NCBI GenBank assembly: GCA_964417635.1
Contig: CAYQIY010000009.1
Span: 24,675 to 88,674 of the forward strand
DNA from: an uncultured Pseudomonadota bacterium
GTDB taxonomy: Bacteria > Bacillota > Sulfobacillia > JAUYEF01
DNA length: 64,000 nt
Reading direction: 5' to 3'
Part shown: positions 33,433 through 64,000 of the stretch, one piece after another
How the letters are laid out: every line of letters starts with the position of its first letter
Numbering within the stretch: position 1 is the first letter of the stretch
Notes under the pieces: generated by a model
The model's database searches: none
What the model was told of the DNA's origin: nothing
What the model saw: the letters and a program-made list of their open reading frames with translations, nothing else
Position numbers and translations under genes: made by a program

Positions 33433-33732
33433 TCACTCCTTAGGCATCGTCTGGCAAGACTCGGCGCACTTCCCTTCGAAGACTGCATCGAGACATCTGA
33501 TGAACTGGTAAACGCACGGCATCTTAATCTCATACGTAACGTTAAGCCCGTCTTTGGAGCTGCTGAGTATTCCGCTTGCCTTCATTAGCCCGAGGTGTCG
33601 GGATATGGTTGACTGGTCGTACGGCAACCTTTCCACAAGCTCGCACACGCATTTGGGGCCTTCAGTGGCGAGTATCTCGACTATCTTGAGCCTTGTTTCA
33701 TGGCCGAGCGCCTTAAATACGTTTACTTTCAA
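33433..33732 (-). CDS. arsR: ArsR/SmtB-family metalloregulator
   Basis: 'FKALGHETRLKIVEIL..CVCEL..STISRHL'. TTG start 7 nt after GGGAGGG. Confidence 0.85.
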   Translation of the reverse strand: MKVNVFKALGHETRLKIVEILATEGPKCVCELVERLPYDQSTISRHLGLMKASGILSSSKDGLNVTYEIKMPCVYQFIRCLDAVFEGKCAESCQTMPKE

Positions 33733-33764
33733 CGTATGTCCCTCCCGTTCAACACTACATGCTT

Positions 33765-33793
33765 ATATTACAATATATGCATATAGTAGTCAA
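33765..33793 (-). promoter_or_regulatory. SigmaA-like promoter with embedded 12-bp palindrome (candidate ArsR operator)
   Basis: Minus strand: TTGACT-17 nt-TAATAT. The spacer contains the perfect palindrome TATATGCATATA (33774-33785). Confidence 0.55.
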
Positions 33794-33795
33794 CC

Positions 33796-34863
33796 TCATT
33801 TCGTACCGACATGCGGGGGAGGAAACCAGTGTTTGGTGCGGTTGGCAAAGGCCACTAAACTGAGCATGAGCGGTACTTCCACAAGAACCCCCACGACCGT
33901 TGCGAGCGCTGCGCCCGAACCGAGACCAAAGAGCGATATAGCGACGGCAACTGCGAGCTCAAAGAAATTGCTCGCGCCTATCATGGCGGCTGGGGCGGCA
34001 ACAGTACGATCCACCTTCCACGCTCTCGCCCAGAAATACGCTATCCCAAAGATTAGGTACGTCTGTATGCTCAGCGGTACCGCTATCAGTAGGATGTGAA
34101 GAGGATTGCTTACTATTGTTTCACCCTGGAAAGAGAACAAAATCACGAGCGTGGTAAGCAGTCCCATGATGGCAAAAGGTTTTAGCCTCGGCAGGAACTG
34201 TTGCTTGAGCCACTCTTGCCCGTGCGTGCGGACGAGTCTTACCCGGGTGATGTAGCCCGCTATGAGCGGGATAACAACGTAGAGCACTACAGACATCACA
34301 ATGGTATCGTATGGCACGCTAAGTTCGGCCAGCCCCAGTTGAAACACCACTATAGGCGCGTACAGAAAGAGCAAGATTATGTCATTGACGGATACTTGTA
34401 CCAGAGTGTGTGCAGCGTTGCCCTGGGTGAGATAACTCCACACAAACACCATGGCGGTGCACGGTGCGGCGCCAAGCAGTATCGCGCCTGCAACATACTG
34501 CTGACCCAAGTCGGCAGCGATCCACGGAGCGAACACAACTCGCAAGAAAAACCACGAGATGGCCAGCATTGTAAACGGTTTGATCAACCAGTTCACAACC
34601 AACGTCACAGTCAGTCCTTTAGGCTGACGAGACGCGCGCACAATACTGCCTAAGTCTATCTGCACCATCATTGGATAGATCATGAGCCAGATGAGAACGG
34701 CCACAGGCACCGACACTTGGGCGTACTCCCATCTGCTGAGAATTCGCGGGAACGAGGGGAACACTAGACCTATCAGCACTCCAAGCGCGATGCATAGCGC
34801 CACCCAGACGCTCAGATACTTCTCAAACGCTCCTAGTCCACTGCCAGATTGTGTGTCTGCCAT
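33796..34863 (-). CDS. acr3: Arsenite efflux permease, ACR3 family
   Basis: '[20 protein letters not shown]' N-terminus, 10-TM BART-type sequence. Start lies 3 nt after the arsR stop. Confidence 0.85.
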
Positions 34864-34866
34864 CGA

Positions 34867-35208
34867 CTATCTCCTTTCGGCTTCTGTACCACATGGGTCA
34901 ACCATGGGTATGTATGGTTCGGGCTCTGGCGCTCCGATTAGTTTCCGACACTCCCGGATTATCTCATTGACCTCTTGAGATGACAGGCTATAGAACACAT
35001 AGGCACCTTTACGGTAACATTTCACTATCCCCGCACGTTTCATCACAGCCAAATGCTGCGAAATGTTGGGTTGTGTCGCTTCGAGCGCACTAAGAATCTC
35101 GCATACGCACTTCTCTCCCGTATGCAGCATATGCGCTATACGCAACCTTAACGGATGCCCAAGCGCCCTCAGCGCCATGGCGGTATCGGTGTCGTCCGGC
35201 ATGTGCAT
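34867..35208 (-). CDS. arsR: ArsR/SmtB-family metalloregulator
   Basis: 'ALGHPLRLRIAHML..CVCEI..PNISQHLAVMK'. Confidence 0.85.
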   Translation of the reverse strand: MHMPDDTDTAMALRALGHPLRLRIAHMLHTGEKCVCEILSALEATQPNISQHLAVMKRAGIVKCYRKGAYVFYSLSSQEVNEIIRECRKLIGAPEPEPYIPMVDPCGTEAERR

Positions 35209-35225
35209 CCCTTCTCTCTCATATT

Positions 35226-45939: not shown

Positions 45940-45945
45940 ACACAA

Positions 45946-47540
45946 TCAGGTAGGAGGCGGGTTCTCCCGCCGTCCTCCCACACCACCCGGCGTCCGAGCC
46001 CGCACGAGGCGGTTCAGCGAGCGTAAACACCGGTATCTGCCTACCAGGATTCGGAATCCGTAGCGCGGTGGCTGGCCCACGATATAAACGCAGGTCAGGC
46101 AATCAGCCTTGGTACTATGCCATGGAAGCCCAACGAACTGATAATCGGCCTCTACAGTGCGGCTTCGGATAACAGCCAAACGGCGGATGGCATCTCAACT
46201 TTGAGACGTTGACTGCGACGCAGATACGCCTATGTCTTCAGACGGCAGCTATTGCAACCGTGATGTCCTGACGCAGTACGAGTGTCGCTATCGCCAACAG
46301 CATCCCCACTGTATGGAACATGGCAGATAAGGCAGCATACAGATTGCCGGATTCTGATACTGTTCCACCGGATATCAAGCTCGTTTAGGACTTTCTGCGT
46401 ACCGAGGTTAGCCCTGACTTCCAGCTTGTCGCCATGCCGGACAAAGGTGCCGGTGTGCATCACGTCGGCCTGTCAGATCATGCGCGCGCCCTCATGGAGT
46501 GGCTTTCTGAAACTGGAAACCTTCGAAGTTTCCTCAGTGTTGTTGCAGACTAACAAGCATCCCTACGGGCAGCAAATGTCGCCCCGCGAGTTCTGGAATC
46601 TTGCCCGTCGCGCTGGCCAGATCAGCCATGACAGCGTCGGTGTCGTTGGCCTTGCGGAAGGTTCGAATTGTGATGCACACATCGAGTTTGTGAGCCGTAG
46701 TACGGGCGTTCTTGTGTCGCGCCTTGTTTCGATGCTCAACGAGATTGCTGAGCAAGGCCAGTTAGCGAATTCATCAGAGGTGCTATGGGAAGATGGATGG
46801 GAATATTTCCGCTGTTACGTTGCGCATCTGTGGGCAGAGAAAAAAACCTCGACGCTGTTCTGTCGGACTCCGAGCAGCTCCTGCGGCAGACCTTTGGCTA
46901 TGCTTCGCTGCGAAATGACCCTGCGCAGATGGCAAAGACGGATGCGCCTACGCAGGGAATCTGGCCGATATGCCTGAGGGCGTTGCCGAGCTTGCAGACT
47001 CGACAGGGTTCTCGCCGGAATGGGTTACTCGAGCGATGGCTGGACTTCGCTCTCTTGAAACCAAACTCATGCTCTCGGATTGGACTCCAGAAAGCCTCTT
47101 CGGCAATGGCGGGAAGATGGCTGATCTGTAGGGCATAATGCTGAAAGTGCCGCAACTGAACAAGCAGCTTAAGGATATTGGCGGCGAGGGGTTTGATCGA
47201 ACCCGCATATCTGAGATCACACTCGATGGCAAAAGAATTGACGTCATGGCCGAAGAGTATTTCGGTCGCGGCGAAGACGATGAAGATGGAACGGCTGCGA
47301 TTACGGATGCCTGCCGCGCGATATATCGAGTCATCGTTAATTGTGGCTCTTGGCGTGTTTCTGCGCTAACGTGTTTATGGCATGGACTTTGACAACGCGC
47401 CTGAAGCAGAGCGCTGCAGCTCGCCAATTCCTGAAGAACCTGATTGACCGTGACTGGCAGCGCGCCCGCCCGAGAAGTGCAGCACTCTCGGGCAGCGAAT
47501 GCAAGCGCATCTGGAAGGTGCTCTCCGGCGAGGGAGGTTC
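45946..47540 (-). mobile_element. Heavily frameshifted IS200/IS605-type tnpB-like remnant (hypothesis)
   Basis: No intact ORF. Five collinear minus-strand fragments sit in the frames of five separate short ORFs and resemble TnpB blocks in the right order. 47427-47516: 'FQMRLHSLP..SRSIRFFRN'. 46955-47107: 'AEEAF..FGFKRAKS..LRHIGQIP'. 46645-46728: 'NKAR..AHKL..ITIRTFRKAN'. 46296-46376: 'DIRWNSIRIRQ..YSGDAV'. 46090-46125: 'PWHSTKADCLTC'. Confidence 0.35.
45952..45976. other. GC-rich hairpin at one edge of the ORF-less region
   Basis: AGGAGGCGGG-TTCT-CCCGCC(G)TCCT, 10 bp with a 1-nt bulge. No T-tract. Confidence 0.5.
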
Positions 47541-47670
47541 ATGATAGCATTTGCCGAAAGATGAGAAAGCCACACTCCTAGCGAGCATCCTCACCTTTGC
47601 CAAAGATTAGCGTTGCCACCCTCGTAGAAGACCGTCACTTCTGAGAAGATCCCCGCGCAGGGCGTACGTG

Positions 47671-47701
47671 AGACGGGCCACTCTATCGGTGTGGCCCGTC
47701 T
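47671..47701. other. Perfect 11-bp hairpin (terminator of the Cys-rich gene and/or element end)
   Basis: AGACGGGCCAC-9 nt-GTGGCCCGTCT. No U-tract on either strand. Confidence 0.5.
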
Positions 47702-47711
47702 ATGCACAGTT

Positions 47712-47885
47712 CTAACAGCACTTATGCGGTTTGTCGCCATGACACTTCTGAATTGTTTCCTCTGAGCAGTCTCCGGGCTTCTTGCCCTCCGGGCATGGCT
47801 TTTCGCCATGGCACTCCTCAATCTGCTCGGGGGTACAGCACTCAGGCTTCTCTGGCTTGTGGCACTTGCTCTTCTCCTCACACAT
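47712..47885 (-). CDS. 57-aa Cys/His-rich repeat protein (metallothionein-like candidate)
   Basis: ATG 47885 lies 10 nt after GGAGGTG. 'MCEEKSKCHKPEKPECCTPEQIEECHGEKPCPEGKKPGDCSEETIQKCHGDKPHKCC'. The ORF-track 132-aa version overlaps the creatininase gene. Confidence 0.6.
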   Translation of the reverse strand: MCEEKSKCHKPEKPECCTPEQIEECHGEKPCPEGKKPGDCSEETIQKCHGDKPHKCC

Positions 47886-47918
47886 GCTGACCGGGCACCT
47901 CCTCTCACTCGTCGCAAC

Positions 47919-47968
47919 TATATGTTGGGCACACATATATGATATTCCCTTATAGCCCAGGGTGTCAA
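47919..47968 (-). promoter_or_regulatory. SigmaA-like promoter plus operator-like palindrome for the Cys-rich gene
   Basis: Minus strand: TTGACA (47968-47963)-18 nt-TATCAT (47944-47939), directly followed by IR TATATGT-N7-ACATATA (47919-47939). Confidence 0.55.
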
Positions 47969-48738: not shown

Positions 48739-50178
48739 CTATGCATCACTCCTAAACTGGTGAAATGCGGGTTTCTGGTCAGGGGGCATCGCCGACTTGT
48801 ACTTGACTCCACCTGTTTTCCGCAAGAACTCTTCGCGTGCCTGACAAAGCAAGTCCGGACGGGTCATGAGTTCAAGTCCGGCCTCAGCCAGTACTCTGGC
48901 CGCTGTAATCATTCCCTCATGACCTATACCCGTTCCGGCCTGTGCAGCATACTGCCACGAATGTCCTGGAGTGCCTATCGCGTTGCACGCCGTCGAGAAC
49001 TGTGCGGTGGGACAACACCAGCTTACGTCTCCCACATCGGTTGAGCCACTGCCTTCCTTCTTCACATTGCACGGTGATATCACGGTAGTGTTCAGCACTT
49101 GGCTCTTGAGAAGATCCGCTTCCTCTTGCGTAACTGACTCTCGCTCGATAAAAGAGAACTTCTGCCTTTCACTAACGCTCTCAGAAATTCGTTGTGCGAA
49201 TTCGAAGTGTTCTTTGCTGAAGTTCGGAGGCCCGACACGCATCATGCACTCGTTCAGCATGTTTTCAAGACACTGGTTGTTGAGCACGTTCCAGATAGCC
49301 TTTATCAGCTCGACTTCGCACGTTGTCTGAGTCATCTTCGCCGCGCCCTCCATGCAGTCAAGCACACGCGCGTAGAGTTCATCCACTTCCTCTCTCTTTG
49401 GAGAGCGGATCAAGTACCACACCGATGCCTCGGCAGGCACCACGTTGGGCTGGAGTCCACCGTTGGTTATTACGTAGTGAACTCGCGCTGCAGGCGGCAT
49501 ATGTTCTCGCAAGAACTCCACGCCAAAGTTCATGAGCTGCACGGCGTCAAGAGCACTGCGGCCATTGTACGGGTCGGCAGCCGCGTGTGCAGTCCTTCCA
49601 TAGAACTTCACGTTCATGGCGTTATTGGCAAGCGACGAAGTGGTACGCACTCTGTTCACGGAACCGGGGTGCCACGTAAGGCATGCATCGAGGTCGTCAA
49701 ACACGCCGTCTCTTGCCATGAACGCCTTCCCGCTCAAGTTCTCTTCGGCAGGACAGCCGAAGTATTTGATCGTTCCTGGAATGCCTCTGCTAAGCATCTC
49801 CTCTTTGAGCGCTATAACCGCGCCCAGCACTGCCACACCGAGCAAGTTGTGGCCACATCCATGTCCGGGTGCGCCCGCCACCAGTTCCTCGCGCACGGGT
49901 AACGGCTTCTGCGACACTCCTGCAAGCGCGTCATACTCGCCCAGCATGCCTATCACCGGACGGCCCGATCCCCAGGTCGCGATGAACGCCGTGGGCATGC
50001 CTCCCACTCCGGTTTGCACACAGAACCCTTCGGCGGCAAGCGCCGAGCGAAGCGCTTCAGCCGACTTGGTTTCATGCAAAGCAAGCTCCGCATATTCCCA
50101 TATGCGATCCGATAGGGCCACCAACATCTCTCGCCTTGAGTCCAGGTAGCGCTGGGCAGTCGTTGCTTTCAATGCCAT
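48739..50178 (-). CDS. M20-family amidohydrolase (AbgB-like)
   Basis: ATG 50178 after GGAGGGAG ('MALKATTAQRYLDS'). 'GHGCGHNLLG', 'VKFYGRTAHAAADPYNGRSALDAV'. Confidence 0.85.
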   Translation of the reverse strand: MALKATTAQRYLDSRREMLVALSDRIWEYAELALHETKSAEALRSALAAEGFCVQTGVGGMPTAFIATWGSGRPVIGMLGEYDALAGVSQKPLPVREELVAGAPGHGCGHNLLGVAVLGAVIALKEEMLSRGIPGTIKYFGCPAEENLSGKAFMARDGVFDDLDACLTWHPGSVNRVRTTSSLANNAMNVKFYGRTAHAAADPYNGRSALDAVQLMNFGVEFLREHMPPAARVHYVITNGGLQPNVVPAEASVWYLIRSPKREEVDELYARVLDCMEGAAKMTQTTCEVELIKAIWNVLNNQCLENMLNECMMRVGPPNFSKEHFEFAQRISESVSERQKFSFIERESVTQEEADLLKSQVLNTTVISPCNVKKEGSGSTDVGDVSWCCPTAQFSTACNAIGTPGHSWQYAAQAGTGIGHEGMITAARVLAEAGLELMTRPDLLCQAREEFLRKTGGVKYKSAMPPDQKPAFHQFRSDA

Positions 50179-50330
50179 GCTGTCTCCCTCCAAGGTTGTA
50201 TGAAACCGTTTTCCGCGAGACAGTGTTAGGCTCCTGCAAGTCGTGCGTGTTATTAAATGAAGCAGGATTGCTAACCAGATATGTGGAAATTCAATTTCCA
50301 CAAACCATGATTTACAGGAGGAGTACACGC

Positions 50331-51625: not shown

Positions 51626-52984
51626 ATGTACCTTACACAACTCTACACCCCCGGACTGGCTCACCTATCGTACGTTATAGCAGGCACCAAGGAGTGTATA
51701 GTGATCGATCCGTCGCGAGATGTCGACCGCTACTTCAAAGTAGCCGAAGACTACGGAATGCCGATCACCACGGTGATTGAAACCCACCTGCACGCAGATT
51801 TCGTATCTGGTCACGTTGAACTGGCGCACAGAGCAGGTGCACGAATTTACATGTCCAAAACGGCCAATGCAGCGTTTCCACACGTAGCGCTTTCAGACGG
51901 TGAGCAGTTCGAGATCGATAATCTCAGGTTTGTGATGCTTGACACACCCGGCCATACTCCGGAAGGTTCTATGTTCATCGTCTCCGACCTCTCGCGTGGC
52001 GATGAACCTGCATTGATGTTTTCCGGTGATACACTGCTCGTAGGCGATGTCGGAAGACCTGACCTGTTTCCAGATATCAAGCGTGAGCTCGCAGAAAAGC
52101 TATACAACAGCCTCAGAAGACTAAAGCAGTTCGGGCCGCACGTGGAAGTCTACCCGGCACACGGCGCCGGTTCTTTGTGTGGCAGAGCACTGTCTGCAAA
52201 GCTCTCAACCACGCTCGGTACTGAGCAGATGTACAACTACGCCCTAAAGATAGACTCGCTATCTGAGTTCATTGAGGCGCTTCTTCAGGGCATGCCAGAA
52301 GCACCTGACCATTTTTCACGCTGCTCGGAGATAAACAGGCGAGGCCCTGTCTACACAGGTGAACTTGCGCCACCCAGGCCACTTACGCCGCTTGAGTTTC
52401 ACAAAGCTGCAACTGAACACGTTATTGTCGACTGCCGTGACCAACTCGCTTTCGCAGGAGCTCACGTACCGGGCTCGTATAGCCTGAGTCTTAGGGGCAA
52501 CTTCGCCACGTTCTCCGGCTGGGTGCTTCCACCCGAAAAAAGCGCACTGCTCGTTACCGAGACCGAAGAGCAGATACACGAAGCACTGGTCGGCCTGAGG
52601 CGAGTCGGCATCGATAACGTTGTCGGCTACCTGAAAGGCGGCATGACCGCATGGGCAAACAGCGGACTCGAGGCCGCCCACTTAGATAGCATATCTATAC
52701 CGAAACTGCGTGAAGCCGCGCAAGGCAGTGATGTAGCCGTAATCGACACGAGACTCGTAAGCGAATGGGAGTCAGGCCACATAGAAGGTGCTGTTCACAT
52801 ACCGGCTCCAGACTTGAGGCACCACGATGTGCCAAGCGCTCGAAAGCTCATGGTCATCTGCAGCACTGGCAACCGCTCCATTCTGGCCGCAAGCCTGCTG
52901 AAGCAGAGAGGATACCACAACGTAGTGAACGTCATCGGCGGAATGACTGCCTGGCAGGCCGCGGGCTATCCGCAAGTGAAATGA
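51626..52984 (+). CDS. MBL-fold persulfide-dioxygenase-like enzyme fused to two rhodanese domains (CstB/Blh-like)
   Basis: 'ETHLHADFVSGH' and 'TPGHTPEG' MBL motifs. C-terminal rhodanese loop 'ICSTGNRS'. Confidence 0.8.
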   Translation: MYLTQLYTPGLAHLSYVIAGTKECIVIDPSRDVDRYFKVAEDYGMPITTVIETHLHADFVSGHVELAHRAGARIYMSKTANAAFPHVALSDGEQFEIDNLRFVMLDTPGHTPEGSMFIVSDLSRGDEPALMFSGDTLLVGDVGRPDLFPDIKRELAEKLYNSLRRLKQFGPHVEVYPAHGAGSLCGRALSAKLSTTLGTEQMYNYALKIDSLSEFIEALLQGMPEAPDHFSRCSEINRRGPVYTGELAPPRPLTPLEFHKAATEHVIVDCRDQLAFAGAHVPGSYSLSLRGNFATFSGWVLPPEKSALLVTETEEQIHEALVGLRRVGIDNVVGYLKGGMTAWANSGLEAAHLDSISIPKLREAAQGSDVAVIDTRLVSEWESGHIEGAVHIPAPDLRHHDVPSARKLMVICSTGNRSILAASLLKQRGYHNVVNVIGGMTAWQAAGYPQVK

Positions 52985-53514
52985 GCGCGGCCATGTTCGA
53001 GACGCTGTTCATCACAAGGTGGCCGTGGTGGGCTGGTGGCATCGGGATTGGCTTGCTGGTGCCCCTGCTTTATCTCTTCCTCAACACAGCGTTGGGAGTG
53101 TCCACCGGATACGGCAACATTGTGAGGTTACTGTTTCCTCGGAGCAGGCTTAAGTGGCTTAATTCGCCCACTTTCGCAGAGCCGTTTGGCTGGAGACTTT
53201 GGTTTATGGCTGGAATCGTACTCGGCGCGTTCGTTGCGTCACGGCTCGGTGCACAGAGCCTGCTGACTGCGGAGATGGGAATCCTGACCGCTTCGGGTGT
53301 CTCGAGTGGTGCAAGCGCATTGCTGCTGTTCTCGGGCGGACTACTGCTCGGACTCGGAGCGAGGCTCGCTGGCGGCTGTACCTCTGGCCACAGCATTCAC
53401 GGAATAGCCAATTTGCATATGTCGAGCATCATAGCAACGATAGCATTTCTGCTGTCTGGATGGCTCGCGTTCTGGCTGATACGCACCTTACTCTTCGGAG
53501 GTGGTGTTTCGTGA
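52981..53514 (+). CDS. YeeE/YedE-family sulfur-compound transport protein (half-size)
   Basis: ATGA overlap with the upstream gene. 'RLAGGCTSGHSIHG' motif. Confidence 0.75.
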   Translation: MSAAMFETLFITRWPWWAGGIGIGLLVPLLYLFLNTALGVSTGYGNIVRLLFPRSRLKWLNSPTFAEPFGWRLWFMAGIVLGAFVASRLGAQSLLTAEMGILTASGVSSGASALLLFSGGLLLGLGARLAGGCTSGHSIHGIANLHMSSIIATIAFLLSGWLAFWLIRTLLFGGGVS

Positions 53515-53933
53515 AAAACCTGCCGTTTCTCGTGTTTGGAGCGCTGTTCGGTTTCTTTCTCTCGAGAGTCGGTGCATCAGACTATAATCTCATATATAGA
53601 ATGTTTGAGCTCACCGACCTGACGCTAGCATGGGTGATACTCACTGCCATCGTTACCGCGGCTCTGGGCATGCGACTACTGCTAGGCGCCCGAACACACA
53701 CGTTCAGCGGAACGCGTATCTCGGTGAAGCAGAAACCACTCGTGTGGCTCAATGCAGCGGGAGGCGTGGTGTTCGGAGTCGGCTGGGCGATGTCTGGTGC
53801 ATGTCCTGGTACGGTGCTTGCCCAGCTCGGTGAAGGCAAACTACTTGCCGTGGCAACGGTACTCGGGCTAGTAACGGGCACTTACATATACGCAGTGCTT
53901 GTGGAGAAATGGCCTTCGTTAGGCAAGTCCTGA
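53511..53933 (+). CDS. YeeE/YedE-like membrane protein, second half-size subunit
   Basis: GTGA overlap. 'GVGWAMSGACPGTVLAQLG'. Confidence 0.7.
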   Translation: MKNLPFLVFGALFGFFLSRVGASDYNLIYRMFELTDLTLAWVILTAIVTAALGMRLLLGARTHTFSGTRISVKQKPLVWLNAAGGVVFGVGWAMSGACPGTVLAQLGEGKLLAVATVLGLVTGTYIYAVLVEKWPSLGKS

Positions 53934-60861: not shown

Positions 60862-61803
60862 TCACGCATTCTTGTGCGCAGTTTGGGTACGTGCGTTTGG
60901 CTGAGGCAGTCTAATTTGAGATTCTTGTGCGCGCTTTAGTTCAACCCATGCCACGGCAACCACTATGAGTGCTCCGCCCATAATCTGTATAGGCGTCAAG
61001 TACTCTCTTATGAAGAGCGCGGCAAATGCCGAGGCAAGCACAGGTTCTAACATGCTGATCAGAATTGCCTGCAGCGCTGGAACTTGTTTCAGACCGTAGA
61101 GAAACAGTCCGAACGGTATCAGTGTTCCGAGTAACGCCATGAACACAAGGAATAGCCAATCGGTGGATACAAGGTTCATACCACGTATAACCCACGGCGG
61201 TTGCACAAAGAACAGCACCACACTACCCGAAAGAAGTCCCCAGAATAGCGCCGTCCAAGACGAGTATAGTTTCACTCCATGCGCCCCATAGATAGCGTAG
61301 AACGCCATCATCACGGCAGACATCAGGCCAGCGGCAAGCCCGAGCGAAGTAGTAGCGATCGTCCCACTGCCCAGAAGCAGCAATCCCGAGCCGCACATTG
61401 CCACAAGCAGGCTCGAGATCACGTACGCCGGTGGCAAGCGCCTATGGCGCACAGCATAATACACAGCGGCCAGCAACGGAGCAGTGTACTGCAGGAAGAT
61501 CGCCGAAGACACGGTGCCTTCGCGCACCGCGGTAAAATACGCTAGTTGCACGAGAGCCATCCCGAAAGCACCGTGCACAAAGAAGTACGGTACGTGTCGC
61601 CTGCCAATAACGAGCAGGTGGCGCGAAAATGCAAAGAGCAGGACGAAGAGCACTAGTGCAGCGATCGTCATTCGTGCCTGGACTATGAGCAATGGAGCGA
61701 GCGGGCGGCTCTTGAACATGTATTTGGCAGATACGGCACTCAAAGACCAGAACACCGTAGCCATCATGATGAAAAAACTACCCCTGAGTTCGTGTGTTTT
61801 CAT
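60862..61803 (-). CDS. EamA/DMT-family transporter
   Basis: 10-TM duplicated EamA-like sequence. Confidence 0.8.
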   Translation of the reverse strand: MKTHELRGSFFIMMATVFWSLSAVSAKYMFKSRPLAPLLIVQARMTIAALVLFVLLFAFSRHLLVIGRRHVPYFFVHGAFGMALVQLAYFTAVREGTVSSAIFLQYTAPLLAAVYYAVRHRRLPPAYVISSLLVAMCGSGLLLLGSGTIATTSLGLAAGLMSAVMMAFYAIYGAHGVKLYSSWTALFWGLLSGSVVLFFVQPPWVIRGMNLVSTDWLFLVFMALLGTLIPFGLFLYGLKQVPALQAILISMLEPVLASAFAALFIREYLTPIQIMGGALIVVAVAWVELKRAQESQIRLPQPNARTQTAHKNA

Positions 61804-61847: not shown

Positions 61848-62420
61848 TTACTTCTGTTTATCATTAAGCCAGTACACTCCCTGAGAGCGCATCATGAACC
61901 CAAAGTCGACAAGCTCTCTCCGGAGAGTTGCGAAATCCGAATGGTACTGCTTGAGTATCTCGTTGACCTCTTTTTCGCGATAACGCACGCCAGGCTCGAA
62001 CTGTGATGCAAGCCACTTGAGCACCACGACCCGCTTCTTGGGACTCACGGGGATGTTTGTTATGGAGCCTCCTTGGTCTGTAAACGACGCAAGCACCTTT
62101 TTCTCCCACGCATCTGCCGTCATCTCGGCAGCAAGAGGTAGCACCTTGTCACTCGCCAAATACTCACGACTGAGTCTGGCCAAGCACTCTACATCGAGCC
62201 GGTAGATATGAGTAGTACCCTCTTTCCGCATCTCGCAAAGGCCTATGCTACGCAGTTTTGCCAGGTGGTGGGATATCGTGGGAGCCTGCAGACCGAGAAT
62301 ACTGGCGAGTTCATCCACACTACACTCGCGGTTGGCCAGAACGCCTATGATCTTGAGCCTGCTCTCGTCGGCGAGAACCTTAAAGAACCTTAGCAGGTTT
62401 TCAAACCTTTCTTCTTCCAT
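61848..62420 (-). CDS. ArsR-type HTH regulator with C-terminal DUF2087-like domain
   Basis: 'FKVLADESRLKIIGVLA..CSVDELA..APTISHHLAKL', then 'VVVLKWLASQFEPGVRYREKEVNEIL'. Confidence 0.8.
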   Translation of the reverse strand: MEEERFENLLRFFKVLADESRLKIIGVLANRECSVDELASILGLQAPTISHHLAKLRSIGLCEMRKEGTTHIYRLDVECLARLSREYLASDKVLPLAAEMTADAWEKKVLASFTDQGGSITNIPVSPKKRVVVLKWLASQFEPGVRYREKEVNEILKQYHSDFATLRRELVDFGFMMRSQGVYWLNDKQK

Positions 62421-62582: not shown

Positions 62583-63029
62583 ATGCGGATAGTGGTTGAC
62601 GCGGACGCGTGCCCGAAGAGTGTACTTAGTATATGTTTCTGCCTGGGCCGCGAGTACTCGTTACCTGTGCTCACGGTGGCAAACCACCACCACATCATCG
62701 ATTCTCCGAACCACGTGCTGGTTGGGGGTGACCCTGAAGAGACTGACATAAAGATAGCAAACCTGGTCACGCGAGCAGACATTGTGGTCACTCAGGACTG
62801 GGGCCTTGCAGCCATTGTGCTCGGCCGAGGTGCCTACTGTCTGTCCCTTACAGGCATGGAGTATCGCGCTGAAACCATAGAATTCATGCTGGAGGAGCGA
62901 GACCTTAAAGCGAGACACCGAAGAGGCGGAGGAAGGACGAAGGGTCCCCGGAAGCGCACTGCCGGAGACGATGAGCGCTTCAAGGCACAGCTAGAACAAA
63001 TCATCTGCCGCATCCAACCGAGCAGCTGA
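62583..63029 (+). CDS. YaiI/YqxD-family protein (UPF0178/DUF188)
   Basis: 'MRIVVDADACP' N-terminus, 'VVTQDWGLAA'. Confidence 0.8.
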   Translation: MRIVVDADACPKSVLSICFCLGREYSLPVLTVANHHHIIDSPNHVLVGGDPEETDIKIANLVTRADIVVTQDWGLAAIVLGRGAYCLSLTGMEYRAETIEFMLEERDLKARHRRGGGRTKGPRKRTAGDDERFKAQLEQIICRIQPSS

Positions 63030-64000
63030 ATCAGAATTGGTGGCTTCTGCCCACCTGAACACGACCTTGGTGAGAAGAGATAACGCAAGCAGAGGCACTG
63101 CTGCCGCATAGAACGCATAACCAAGCGACGCAAACTGCGCGATAACCCCGAACAGCAAAGGATTGATCACGAGCGCAAGGCCCCACATCGTCCCGGAAAA
63201 CGCTATGGCTAGCCCACGTTGCTCGGGTGGGGTGTTCTCAGATATGAGTATTACAGGCAGTATTTGAAGTGGGCTTGAACCAAAGCCGGTTACTGCCACG
63301 CACACAGCAAGCGGCAAGGCTTGGGTAAAGAAGGGCATCAGAAAGAAACCCGTGCCTGTGAGCAATAAGCCGAAAAACCAGCTGTACTGTTTCGGCCAAC
63401 GGTTGAACGTGACGGCATACGTGAGACTCCCAAGCAGAAGGAATAAACCTCTCAGTGAGACTATGCCACCGACGATTTGCGGCGACATTCCGAGTTGGCT
63501 TAAATATAGTGGCACAAGCGAGCTGAGCAATGCAAGCGGCACTGCGGCTGCGTATCTGGAAAGTCCGGCCAAAAGCACCGCTCTGGAGCGCACAACTCCA
63601 GCGAGTGTACTCAAGCCGTGAGTCTCTGCTTGTTGAGCTGTGGGATTTGACGCAGTCTGCAGTCGCAAGGCCAACAGTGCGGAGACGAGCCCGCCAGCAC
63701 CGATTGCCACAAATCCGGCAGCATAACCCATGCGCACTACGAGATACCCTGCTATAACAGGTCCAGCGATAAGACCTGCACTGCTTAAGGTATGGTAGAG
63801 ACCCATCGCTGCTCCGAGCATTTTTCCGGCATTCTTACTCATATAGGACTCCGCTGCCGGGTGATACGCTGTCCTAGACAGTCCTGTTAACGCCTGTGCC
63901 ATCACCAATGCAAGCAGTGTTCCTTTGACGTACAGCGGCACCGAAAACGCCATCAGCAGAGTTGACCCAATAAGAATAGCACGCTCTCCCCATTTGTCCG
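62991..64000 (-). CDS. MFS transporter; 5' end lies outside the window
   Basis: The reading frame stays open upstream of ATG 63953 to the window edge ('DKWGERAILIGSTLL'). Multiple TM helices. The 3' end overlaps yaiI-like by 39 nt. Confidence 0.75.
   Translation of the reverse strand, partial: DKWGERAILIGSTLLMAFSVPLYVKGTLLALVMAQALTGLSRTAYHPAAESYMSKNAGKMLGAAMGLYHTLSSAGLIAGPVIAGYLVVRMGYAAGFVAIGAGGLVSALLALRLQTASNPTAQQAETHGLSTLAGVVRSRAVLLAGLSRYAAAVPLALLSSLVPLYLSQLGMSPQIVGGIVSLRGLFLLLGSLTYAVTFNRWPKQYSWFFGLLLTGTGFFLMPFFTQALPLAVCVAVTGFGSSPLQILPVILISENTPPEQRGLAIAFSGTMWGLALVINPLLFGVIAQFASLGYAFYAAAVPLLALSLLTKVVFRWAEATNSDSAARLDAADDLF

Follow-up and report, generated by a model that had tools for sequence, protein, structure and literature searches.

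Few families of bacterial metallothioneins and metallochaperones are known, namely SmtA/BmtA, MymT, CopZ/HMA and ArsD. HMA domains occur either stand-alone, as CopZ, or fused to partner proteins. Here, we analyzed a gene for a 57-residue, Cys/His-rich protein at positions 47712–47885 (minus strand) of a 64,000-nt stretch of contig CAYQIY010000009.1, referred to in full length as the window. A first-pass annotation, made from the DNA letters alone, had likened the composition of this protein to that of a metallothionein or metallochaperone. We found a real gene that belongs to a large family of module-containing small proteins, most of them encoded directly behind metalloregulator genes and ahead of exporters. 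The protein is probably a buffer or chaperone that binds metal or metalloid ions.

The 57-residue protein and its module family

The coding sequence runs from an ATG at 47885–47883 to a TAG stop codon at 47714–47712, and its translation, MCEEKSKCHKPEKPECCTPEQIEECHGEKPCPEGKKPGDCSEETIQKCHGDKPHKCC, is an exact match to the 57 residues given in the first-pass annotation. The composition stated there was also confirmed. The protein contains ten Cys (17.5%; positions 2, 8, 16, 17, 25, 31, 40, 48, 56 and 57) and four His (7%; positions 9, 26, 49 and 54), lacks Phe, Trp and Tyr altogether and has M1, I22 and I45 as its only hydrophobic residues. Relative to the 1.4% Cys of the long open reading frames (ORFs) in the window, the binomial probability of at least ten Cys in 57 residues is ~9e-9, and the ORF ranks first in the window for Cys richness. 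Operationally, a metallothionein composition means low mass, with Cys making up roughly 15% or more of the residues and aromatic ones rare or absent, and all of this applies here. CxxC and CxxCH motifs are absent, as read directly from the sequence, and a hydrophobic N terminus or signal sequence was not seen. Assignment as a c-type cytochrome or haem-binding peptide was rejected because the preceding Cys lies at −8 rather than −3 of the C-H pairs and a signal peptide is lacking.

The protein had earlier been described as three C-x(5-7)-C-H repeats. Two near-identical units at residues 17–30 and 40–53 are real and match the conserved core of the family, but the threefold pattern was not borne out; the protein consists of two modules of one family-wide unit. 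The residues of the proposed degenerate first unit, C2..C8-H9, do exist but form no repeat because C8 holds in module 1 the position that C31 holds in module 2. C8 is thus the predicted first ligand of module 1, and H9 is unconserved. The family unit is one module of ~25–35 residues with the pattern C-x(7-12)-C-[ST]-P-E-Q-I-[RK]-x-C-H-G-[DE]-x(3)-H-P-C or, in a looser form, C-x(7-12)-C-[ST]-P-E-Q-I-x-x-C-H-G-x(3-4)-[H]-x-C. Members carry one module (~40–50 residues), two (~75–80 residues, the commonest among those retrieved) or three (locus L066). Across 113 aligned sequences, C25, C40, H49 and G50 (window protein numbering) are invariant. M1, C8, P14, C17, E20, Q21, H26, G27, C31, P37, E43, Q44, C48, H54 and C56 are conserved to at least 90%, as is a His at the position of K29. 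The conserved columns are almost solely Cys, His, Pro and Gly, together with the Glu-Gln of the helix.

With the exception of one His, the window protein matches every one of these columns. Its core signature, P-x-x-C-[ST]-x-E-x-[IV]-x-x-C-H-G with flanking upstream and downstream Cys, is present twice, as P14..C17-TPEQIEE-C25-H26-G27..C31 and as P37..C40-SEETIQK-C48-H49-G50..C56. Module 1 spans approximately residues 8–31 and module 2 residues 31–56, with C31 doubling as the predicted last ligand of the former and first ligand of the latter. Module 2 carries H54-K-C56, and module 1 has K29-P-C31 without the widely conserved distal His. The spacers are short, with Ca–Cb distances of 7–8 residues (family mode 12) and CH..C distances of 4 and 6 (family mode 7 for CH..Cd), and the extra Cys form CC pairs at 16/17 and 56/57. 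Together with the homologues P0002, P0004, P0016 and P0084, the window protein makes up a compact subgroup.

AlphaFold2 models of the window protein and of the canonical member P0060 had a pLDDT of ~60 and contained only two short PEQIxxC helices. This low confidence is consistent with a chain that lacks a hydrophobic core and may fold only around its ligand. The model of the window protein showed neither a ferredoxin-like nor a thioredoxin-like fold, and a Foldseek search of the PDB with the P0060 model returned noise only (E > 4), so that no fold was assignable. Neither Pfam nor NCBIfam assigned a family to the window protein or to eight canonical members; the sole Pfam result for the window protein at E ≤ 1 was a spurious LPD11 match below the cutoff (E 0.022). 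PDB sequence searches with the protein and with a profile of the 113 sequences gave nothing at E ≤ 10.

The first-pass annotation had proposed searching related genomes for the repeat, and such searches established that the ORF is conserved. A word-indexed homology search with the single sequence yielded one match, the same-strain copy P0001 (locus L001). An exhaustive phmmer search of 1.84 billion representatives identified seven divergent homologues (57–78 residues, 53–63% identity, E 1e-6 to 6e-4), and the profile made from them brought in at least 1,540 proteins (E ≤ 0.01), a lower bound from 8,000 scored candidates. P0001, which is near-identical to the window protein, reaches 68 bits (E 2e-13) with the family profile. 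The relatives retrieved are almost all 57–115 residues long, have no Pfam domain and are called ‘hypothetical’ where named; all of them stem from metagenomes or metagenome-assembled genomes (MAGs).

Scanning GTDB species genomes confirmed 135 relatives from more than ten phyla, all in MAGs. Eighty of these were kept, and a metagenome scan added 80 loci. The GTDB relatives belonged to Planctomycetota (Brocadiia, Phycisphaerae and Planctomycetaceae), Lentisphaeria, Kiritimatiellia, Puniceicoccaceae, Anaerolineales/Chloroflexota, Syntrophomonadaceae, Halobacteroidaceae, Desulfobacterota, Armatimonadota, WOR-3, WS1, Hebobacteria and Actinomycetes. Overall, the family reaches across Planctomycetota, other phyla of the Planctomycetota–Verrucomicrobiota–Chlamydiota (PVC) group, Chloroflexota, Bacillota, Desulfobacterota, Armatimonadota and candidate phyla. 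Many GTDB relatives come from soda-lake or hypersaline sediment.

The closest distinct relative with DNA, L008, encodes a 61% identical protein and differs from the window gene with a pS of 0.91 (saturated) and a pN of 0.29. Because the protein is conserved while synonymous sites are saturated, the ORF is a real gene and not a chance ORF. Between L001 and the window, there is one single-nucleotide polymorphism (SNP) in 600 nt, which is uninformative on selection. This SNP, CAT to CTT (L001 2199–2201; window ~47739–47741), turns the family-invariant His49 into Leu. Identical copies of the gene occur in two further metagenome samples (L100 and L101), both with His49, and the L001 change may reflect either a rare variant or a mistake in assembly or sequencing. 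The exact 57-residue sequence is missing from the protein collection searched, and the JGI gene call is a 90-residue, N-terminally extended version. The alignment indicates that the 57-residue start is correct and the 90-residue call over-extended because the N-terminal ‘MC’ aligns across the family, with M1 among the columns conserved to at least 90%. Overlapping frames at the locus include an antisense 62-residue ORF.

Operon contexts and fusions of the relatives

Genomic contexts were tallied for 96 non-redundant loci, in which all six-frame ORFs were searched by phmmer with reference neighbours (E < 1e-5). The gene directly upstream was of the ArsR/SmtB type in 63 of the 79 evaluable loci and a padR gene in two. 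Of the 67 loci evaluable on the downstream side, 55 encoded an exporter there (ABC ATPase in 54, ABC-2 permease in 49 and ChrA in four), a DsrE-like gene followed the small gene in 13 of 67, and 32 tallied loci contained an S-adenosylmethionine (SAM) methyltransferase gene. The first five long-contig contexts all featured a same-strand HTH_5/HTH_20 (ArsR) gene directly upstream. Downstream genes took two arrangements. One combines the gene for a class-I SAM methyltransferase (~215 residues) with those for an ABC ATPase and its ABC-2 permease, and a DsrE-like or MtaA/URO-D-type gene is sometimes added. In the other, ChrA is followed by an extracytoplasmic function sigma factor, a zf-HC2 anti-sigma factor, Metal_resist, OEP and a CusB/CzcB-type membrane fusion protein. 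The context of the module family is unusually uniform: repressor, module, in some cases methyltransferase, and exporter, plus the repressor fusions described below.

The upstream regulator passes the NCBIfam model ‘metalloregulator ArsR/SmtB’ (82 bits, cutoff 55). These ArsR partners possess two conserved Cys, one in an ‘LCV’ motif and one in the tail, and lack the canonical CVC As(III) site. The ABC pair of the canonical operon is DrrA/DrrB-like. Its methyltransferase is generic, with NCBIfam ArsM and UbiE scores far below cutoff, and assignment as a Cys-triad ArsM was rejected on account of a single Cys column, 77% conserved. A different order was found in the two closest distinct relatives, L008 (P0016) and L095 (P0002), where a padR gene precedes the small gene and two ArsP_1-like permease ORFs follow it. 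Both PadR proteins (L008 1062–1469; L095 ~510–911) carry a conserved Cys/His-rich N-terminal extension, V-C-x5-CCGH-x3-RPCEC, and may represent a metal- or metalloid-sensing PadR subtype.

In 21 distinct ORFs of 140–211 residues, an ArsR helix-turn-helix (HTH) domain and one or two C-terminal modules share an uninterrupted frame (L039, L043, L045, L048, L054, L080, L084, L091, L094, L109, L111, L125, L133, L134, L143, L145, L147, L158, L169, L171 and L177). Named genomes with such fusions are those of Syntrophomonadaceae, Desulfonatronospira, Syntrophales and other Desulfobacterota MAGs, and Pfam confirmed HTH_5 in one of the ORFs. The fusion linkers hold further conserved Cys, for example in ‘YICLR’ and ‘PCxEGVCIKK..C’. 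An internal ‘MC’ is kept at the module start, and separate translation of the fused module from this internal start is conceivable. In L102 (4184–5524), one module forms the N terminus of a 447-residue membrane methyltransferase of the PEMT/ICMT type (RHPQY motif). Because the module is fused both to ArsR HTH domains and to this methyltransferase, it is best read as a portable cytosolic domain that would work physically beside repressor and methyltransferase.

Promoter, putative operator and neighbourhood in the window

The good ribosome-binding site, separate promoter and downstream hairpin reported in the first-pass annotation were all recovered. Read directly from the sequence, a Shine-Dalgarno motif, GAGGAGG (47898–47904, minus strand), lies 12 nt 5′ of the ATG. 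It is preceded by a sigma-70-like promoter (47939–47968, minus strand) with a −35 hexamer TTGACA (47968–47963), an N18 spacer and a −10 hexamer TATCAT (47944–47939), which agrees with the consensus at 11 of 12 positions, 0.5 such sites being expected in a shuffled region. Adjoining the −10 hexamer and spanning the likely transcription start is an operator-like palindrome, TATATGT-N7-ACATATA (47919–47939, unstranded), with perfect 7-bp arms that contain ATGT-N7-ACAT. This palindrome has no second match in the window, where 0.04 are expected by chance. On the other side of the gene, a stem-loop, GACGGGCCAC-N9-GTGGCCCGTC (47672–47700, minus strand), begins 12 nt past the stop codon. It has a 10-bp GC-rich stem and a minimum free energy of −25.8 kcal/mol (z = −3.28), with one of 200 shuffles folding equally well. 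No T-run follows it, and the hairpin is a probable terminator or RNA-stabilising element.

The padR promoter of L095 is nearly colinear with that of the window gene, the pattern common to both being GGGnATATCATATAT(AT)GTG...CATATA..TGCGnCGAG, and a TATATG/CATATA palindrome is common to L008 and the window promoter. This promoter likeness of the window to L008 and L095 persists despite saturated synonymous sites in the coding region. PadR operators feature inverted ATGT/ACAT motifs ~8–10 nt apart (PMC3506622). Palindromes of the ArsR-type operons differ, with examples such as TTTAG..CTAAA and ATCTGC.CAGAT read directly from the loci. Judged from these sequence motifs, the window gene most likely keeps a PadR-type operator, on which a PadR-type repressor from a gene beyond the window would act in trans. 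The gene offers a testable candidate regulator-operator pair consisting of a PadR-like repressor and TATATGT-N7-ACATATA.

The upstream neighbour of the window gene encodes a creatininase-family hydrolase, and an M20 hydrolase gene is also adjacent. Both had been linked to the small gene in the first-pass annotation, but they recur beside it only in same-strain contigs and in no divergent homologue, so the link did not hold. Synteny between L008 and the window is confined to the small gene and one weak, short match in the promoter region. The longest-ORF call for the M20 hydrolase (48739–50328, minus strand) has 529 residues and a GTG start, compared to 385 residues in the L001 call, which implies a start near 49896; the longer call is probably over-extended at its N terminus, where it overlaps the start of a divergent CitMHS/SLC13 permease ORF at 50136. 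Directly downstream of the small gene, ~1.7 kb of normal GC content (45940–47700) contain no recognisable gene. We found no ORF with a Pfam or PHROG match, no Rfam match at E ≤ 1 and no notable repeats there, and for the equivalent region of L001, gene callers give just hypothetical ORFs of 47–55 residues.

On the plus strand at 51626–53933, two YeeE/YedE-type ‘Sulf_transp’ half-genes come after the gene for a metallo-β-lactamase-fold (MBL; persulfide-dioxygenase-like) protein that contains two rhodanese domains. This set looks like a sulfur-detoxification or import unit and lies 3.7–6 kb from the small gene, a link that is not conserved in relatives. Three ArsR-like ORFs are present in the window in other contexts, 12–14 kb from the small gene. 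An arsenic-resistance-like cluster at 33436–35223 (minus strand) comprises an ArsR-family gene (34870–35223), an SBF/ACR3-type transporter gene (33796–34863) and a further ArsR-family gene (33436–33762). Another regulator-exporter pair on the minus strand consists of an ArsR-type HTH fused to DUF2087 (61848–62420) and an EamA-family transporter (60862–61803). A LeuC-like protein had its best named matches in Bacillota at 47% identity, too low for placing the organism in a phylum. Lastly, a 320-residue MFS_1 ORF (62991–63953, minus strand) covers only the first half of the MFS model, in a match that begins behind 140 N-terminal residues, and may be a frameshifted or truncated transporter gene.

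Proposed function and comparison with described systems

In the mechanism that we propose, the ligand-free protein would be largely unfolded, having no hydrophobic core, and each module would wrap around a soft metal or metalloid ion, with three to four thiolates and one to two imidazoles as ligands. Once loaded, the protein would buffer the ion and, in the operon versions, pass it to the repressor, resulting in de-repression, and/or to the exporter or methyltransferase. Such a hand-over would mirror the way in which CopZ works in copYZAB and ArsD in arsRDAB. The window copy, a condensed CC-pair variant with a promoter to itself and no partner genes, most likely serves as a metallothionein-like buffer or chaperone that is induced by stress. 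As to the ion bound, the invariant His would speak for Zn, Cd, Ni, Co or Cu rather than As(III), and metalloids or oxyanions are suggested by the neighbouring genes for ArsP-like permeases, ChrA and methyltransferases. The first-pass suggestion of a metallothionein or metallochaperone is, thus, the best-backed reading in view of the exporter operons under ArsR/SmtB or PadR control and the 21 ArsR fusions, with metal binding itself as its predicted part.

Several points weigh against this assignment. It draws on composition and guilt by association. Regulator, exporter and methyltransferase genes are all missing beside the window gene, and no PadR, ABC-2 or canonical methyltransferase homologue was found in the window. 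In the putative operator, the ATGT/ACAT spacer is 7 nt rather than the ~8–10 nt of PadR sites (PMC3506622), and the palindrome spacing is 2 nt off that of L008 and L095. The two-Cys pattern of the ArsR partners is also known from persulfide and redox sensors. Moreover, ABC-2 exporters of the DrrAB-like type usually carry organic compounds and are not classical metal pumps, and the methyltransferases have no ArsM-like Cys triad, so that the canonical operon may act on an organic or sulfur species.

A broader proposal, which we regard as speculative and rather unlikely, is that of two-piece metalloregulators. The module would be a portable metal- or metalloid-sensing and hand-over domain that switches ArsR or PadR proteins without a full site of their own, in trans or as a fusion, and presents the bound species to the Cys-poor SAM methyltransferase and the ABC-2 exporter. 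The operons would then constitute an unrecognised soft-metal or metalloid detoxification system of anaerobic, sulfidic habitats, with the window gene as a free-standing, Cys-enriched offshoot and true metallothionein. A similarly doubtful alternative is a regulatory co-sensor: the module would bind an inducer and control DNA binding by ArsR or PadR without sequestration or delivery, and the window copy would be an orphan anti- or co-repressor for a regulator encoded elsewhere. The fusion ORFs and the position of the small gene immediately after the repressor gene at 63 of 79 loci fit a co-sensor, as do the ArsR partners, which lack the CVC site and may need ligands supplied in trans. However, the window copy has no adjacent regulator, and the PadR partners of the closest subfamily own the Cys-rich C-x5-CCGH-x3-RPCEC extension and may need no helper. 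In addition, the methyltransferase fusion and the occurrence of one to three module copies better fit a portable binding domain than a dedicated regulator. The co-sensor also overlaps with the buffer or chaperone reading, as CopZ and ArsD each combine both roles.

We consider it improbable that the protein is a reactive-sulfur or redox buffer, in which the Cys carry sulfane sulfur or cycle between thiol and disulfide as part of a sulfide or oxidant response controlled by a BigR/SqrR-like ArsR protein. DsrE-like genes (Pfam DsrE) after the small gene in 13 of 67 loci, the two conserved Cys of the ArsR partners, weak NCBIfam matches that include BigR, the origin of many members from MAGs of sulfidic soda-lake or hypersaline sediment and the MBL-rhodanese and YeeE/YedE genes in the window would all suit such a role. 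Yet the BigR match reaches 45 bits against a cutoff of 155, and those window genes are on the opposite strand behind a permease gene and unconserved near homologues. The invariant His of C-H-G and the ≥90% conserved distal His are hallmarks of metal ligation that persulfide chemistry does not need, and the ChrA, Metal_resist and CusB/CzcB-type neighbours suggest metals or oxyanions.

The first-pass annotation had also raised a Cys-rich precursor peptide. As a ribosomally synthesized and post-translationally modified peptide (RiPP) precursor, the product would be methylated, cross-linked or otherwise modified; the ABC transporter encoded next to it would export it and, in the window, the creatininase-fold or M20 enzymes would process it. 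The order of small peptide, methyltransferase and ABC transporter superficially resembles a RiPP cluster, and the window gene comes after creatininase-family and M20 genes, but the evidence leaves this origin very unlikely. There is no leader/core split, conservation being full-length and the unit tandemly duplicated. Across ~170 loci, no maturase or related gene of the radical SAM, YcaO, LanM-type or peptidase-domain ABC kind is conserved alongside. The module is fused to a cytosolic DNA-binding HTH domain in the 21 ORFs, the protein has no signal sequence, and the creatininase and M20 neighbours are restricted to same-strain contigs. Finally, a chance ORF or mis-called frame in an intergenic region, which the absence of the exact sequence from the protein collection, the 90-residue gene call and the antisense and other overlapping frames might suggest, can be dismissed with near certainty in view of the conserved protein amid saturated synonymous sites, at least 1,540 homologues whose ‘MC’ start aligns with the 57-residue start, the ribosome-binding site, promoter and hairpin, and a Cys content with P ~9e-9.

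Should the protein indeed bind metal as a buffer or chaperone, the module would define a new ligand-binding domain and allow annotation of thousands of ‘hypothetical proteins’. It would also open to study an uncharacterised ArsR-controlled ABC-2/methyltransferase detoxification operon that is common in anoxic and sulfidic environments and provide a genetically encodable metal-binding tag of 25–35 residues.

Among described systems, SmtA/BmtA (Synechococcus smtB-smtA, PF02069) is likewise a small cytosolic Cys-rich protein with some His, and its expression is tied to an ArsR/SmtB-family metalloregulator, as it appears to be in the operons of the window gene's relatives. The first-pass annotation had, however, found no resemblance to SmtA/BmtA, and our Pfam scan agreed, with no metallothionein (Metallothio_Pro), HMA or ArsD match at E ≤ 1; the PDB sequence and profile searches were equally negative. 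The module, C...C-x7-CH...(H)xC, differs from the Cys9His2 zinc-finger-like fold of SmtA, and canonical module genes are co-directional with the repressor gene, followed by exporter genes and in some cases fused to the repressor.

CopZ (Enterococcus hirae copYZAB; HMA, PF00403) shares the gene order of repressor, small metal-binding protein and exporter, binding being predicted for the module proteins, and the expectation that the small protein serves both repressor and pump. As with HMA, a single domain is used stand-alone or fused to partners. In contrast, the window protein has no GMxCxxC motif, HMA fold or Pfam match. Module proteins are far richer in Cys and His, have no hydrophobic core and are partnered with ABC-2, ChrA and ArsP-like exporters instead of P-type ATPases. 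ArsD (arsRDABC, PF06953) also follows directly after the arsR gene and precedes those for an ATPase and a membrane exporter. It contains vicinal Cys pairs, comparable to the window CC pairs at 16/17 and 56/57, and its weak repressor activity parallels the ArsR-module fusions. However, ArsD has no sequence similarity to the window protein, is ~120 residues long with a thioredoxin-like fold and lacks conserved His ligands, and the exporter in the module operons is of the DrrAB-like ABC-2 type rather than ArsAB. Membership in either HMA/CopZ or ArsD was rejected based on the lack of a Pfam match, of a GMxCxxC or Cys12-Cys13-Cys18 site and of a matching AlphaFold2 fold.

MymT, the Cu(I) metallothionein of Mycobacterium tuberculosis, resembles the window protein as a Cys-rich protein of ~50 residues that is unlike SmtA and represents a stress-inducible orphan metallothionein type. 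It is not known to contain a repeated PEQIxxCHG module or to occur outside mycobacteria, in contrast to the more than ten phyla of the module family. Literature searches by motif string and keyword found no description of a PEQIxxCHG-module family. In our view, it is a new sequence family with an unusually clear operon and fusion signature, and its functional kind is a known one, that of small Cys/His-rich metal-handling proteins under winged-helix metalloregulators.

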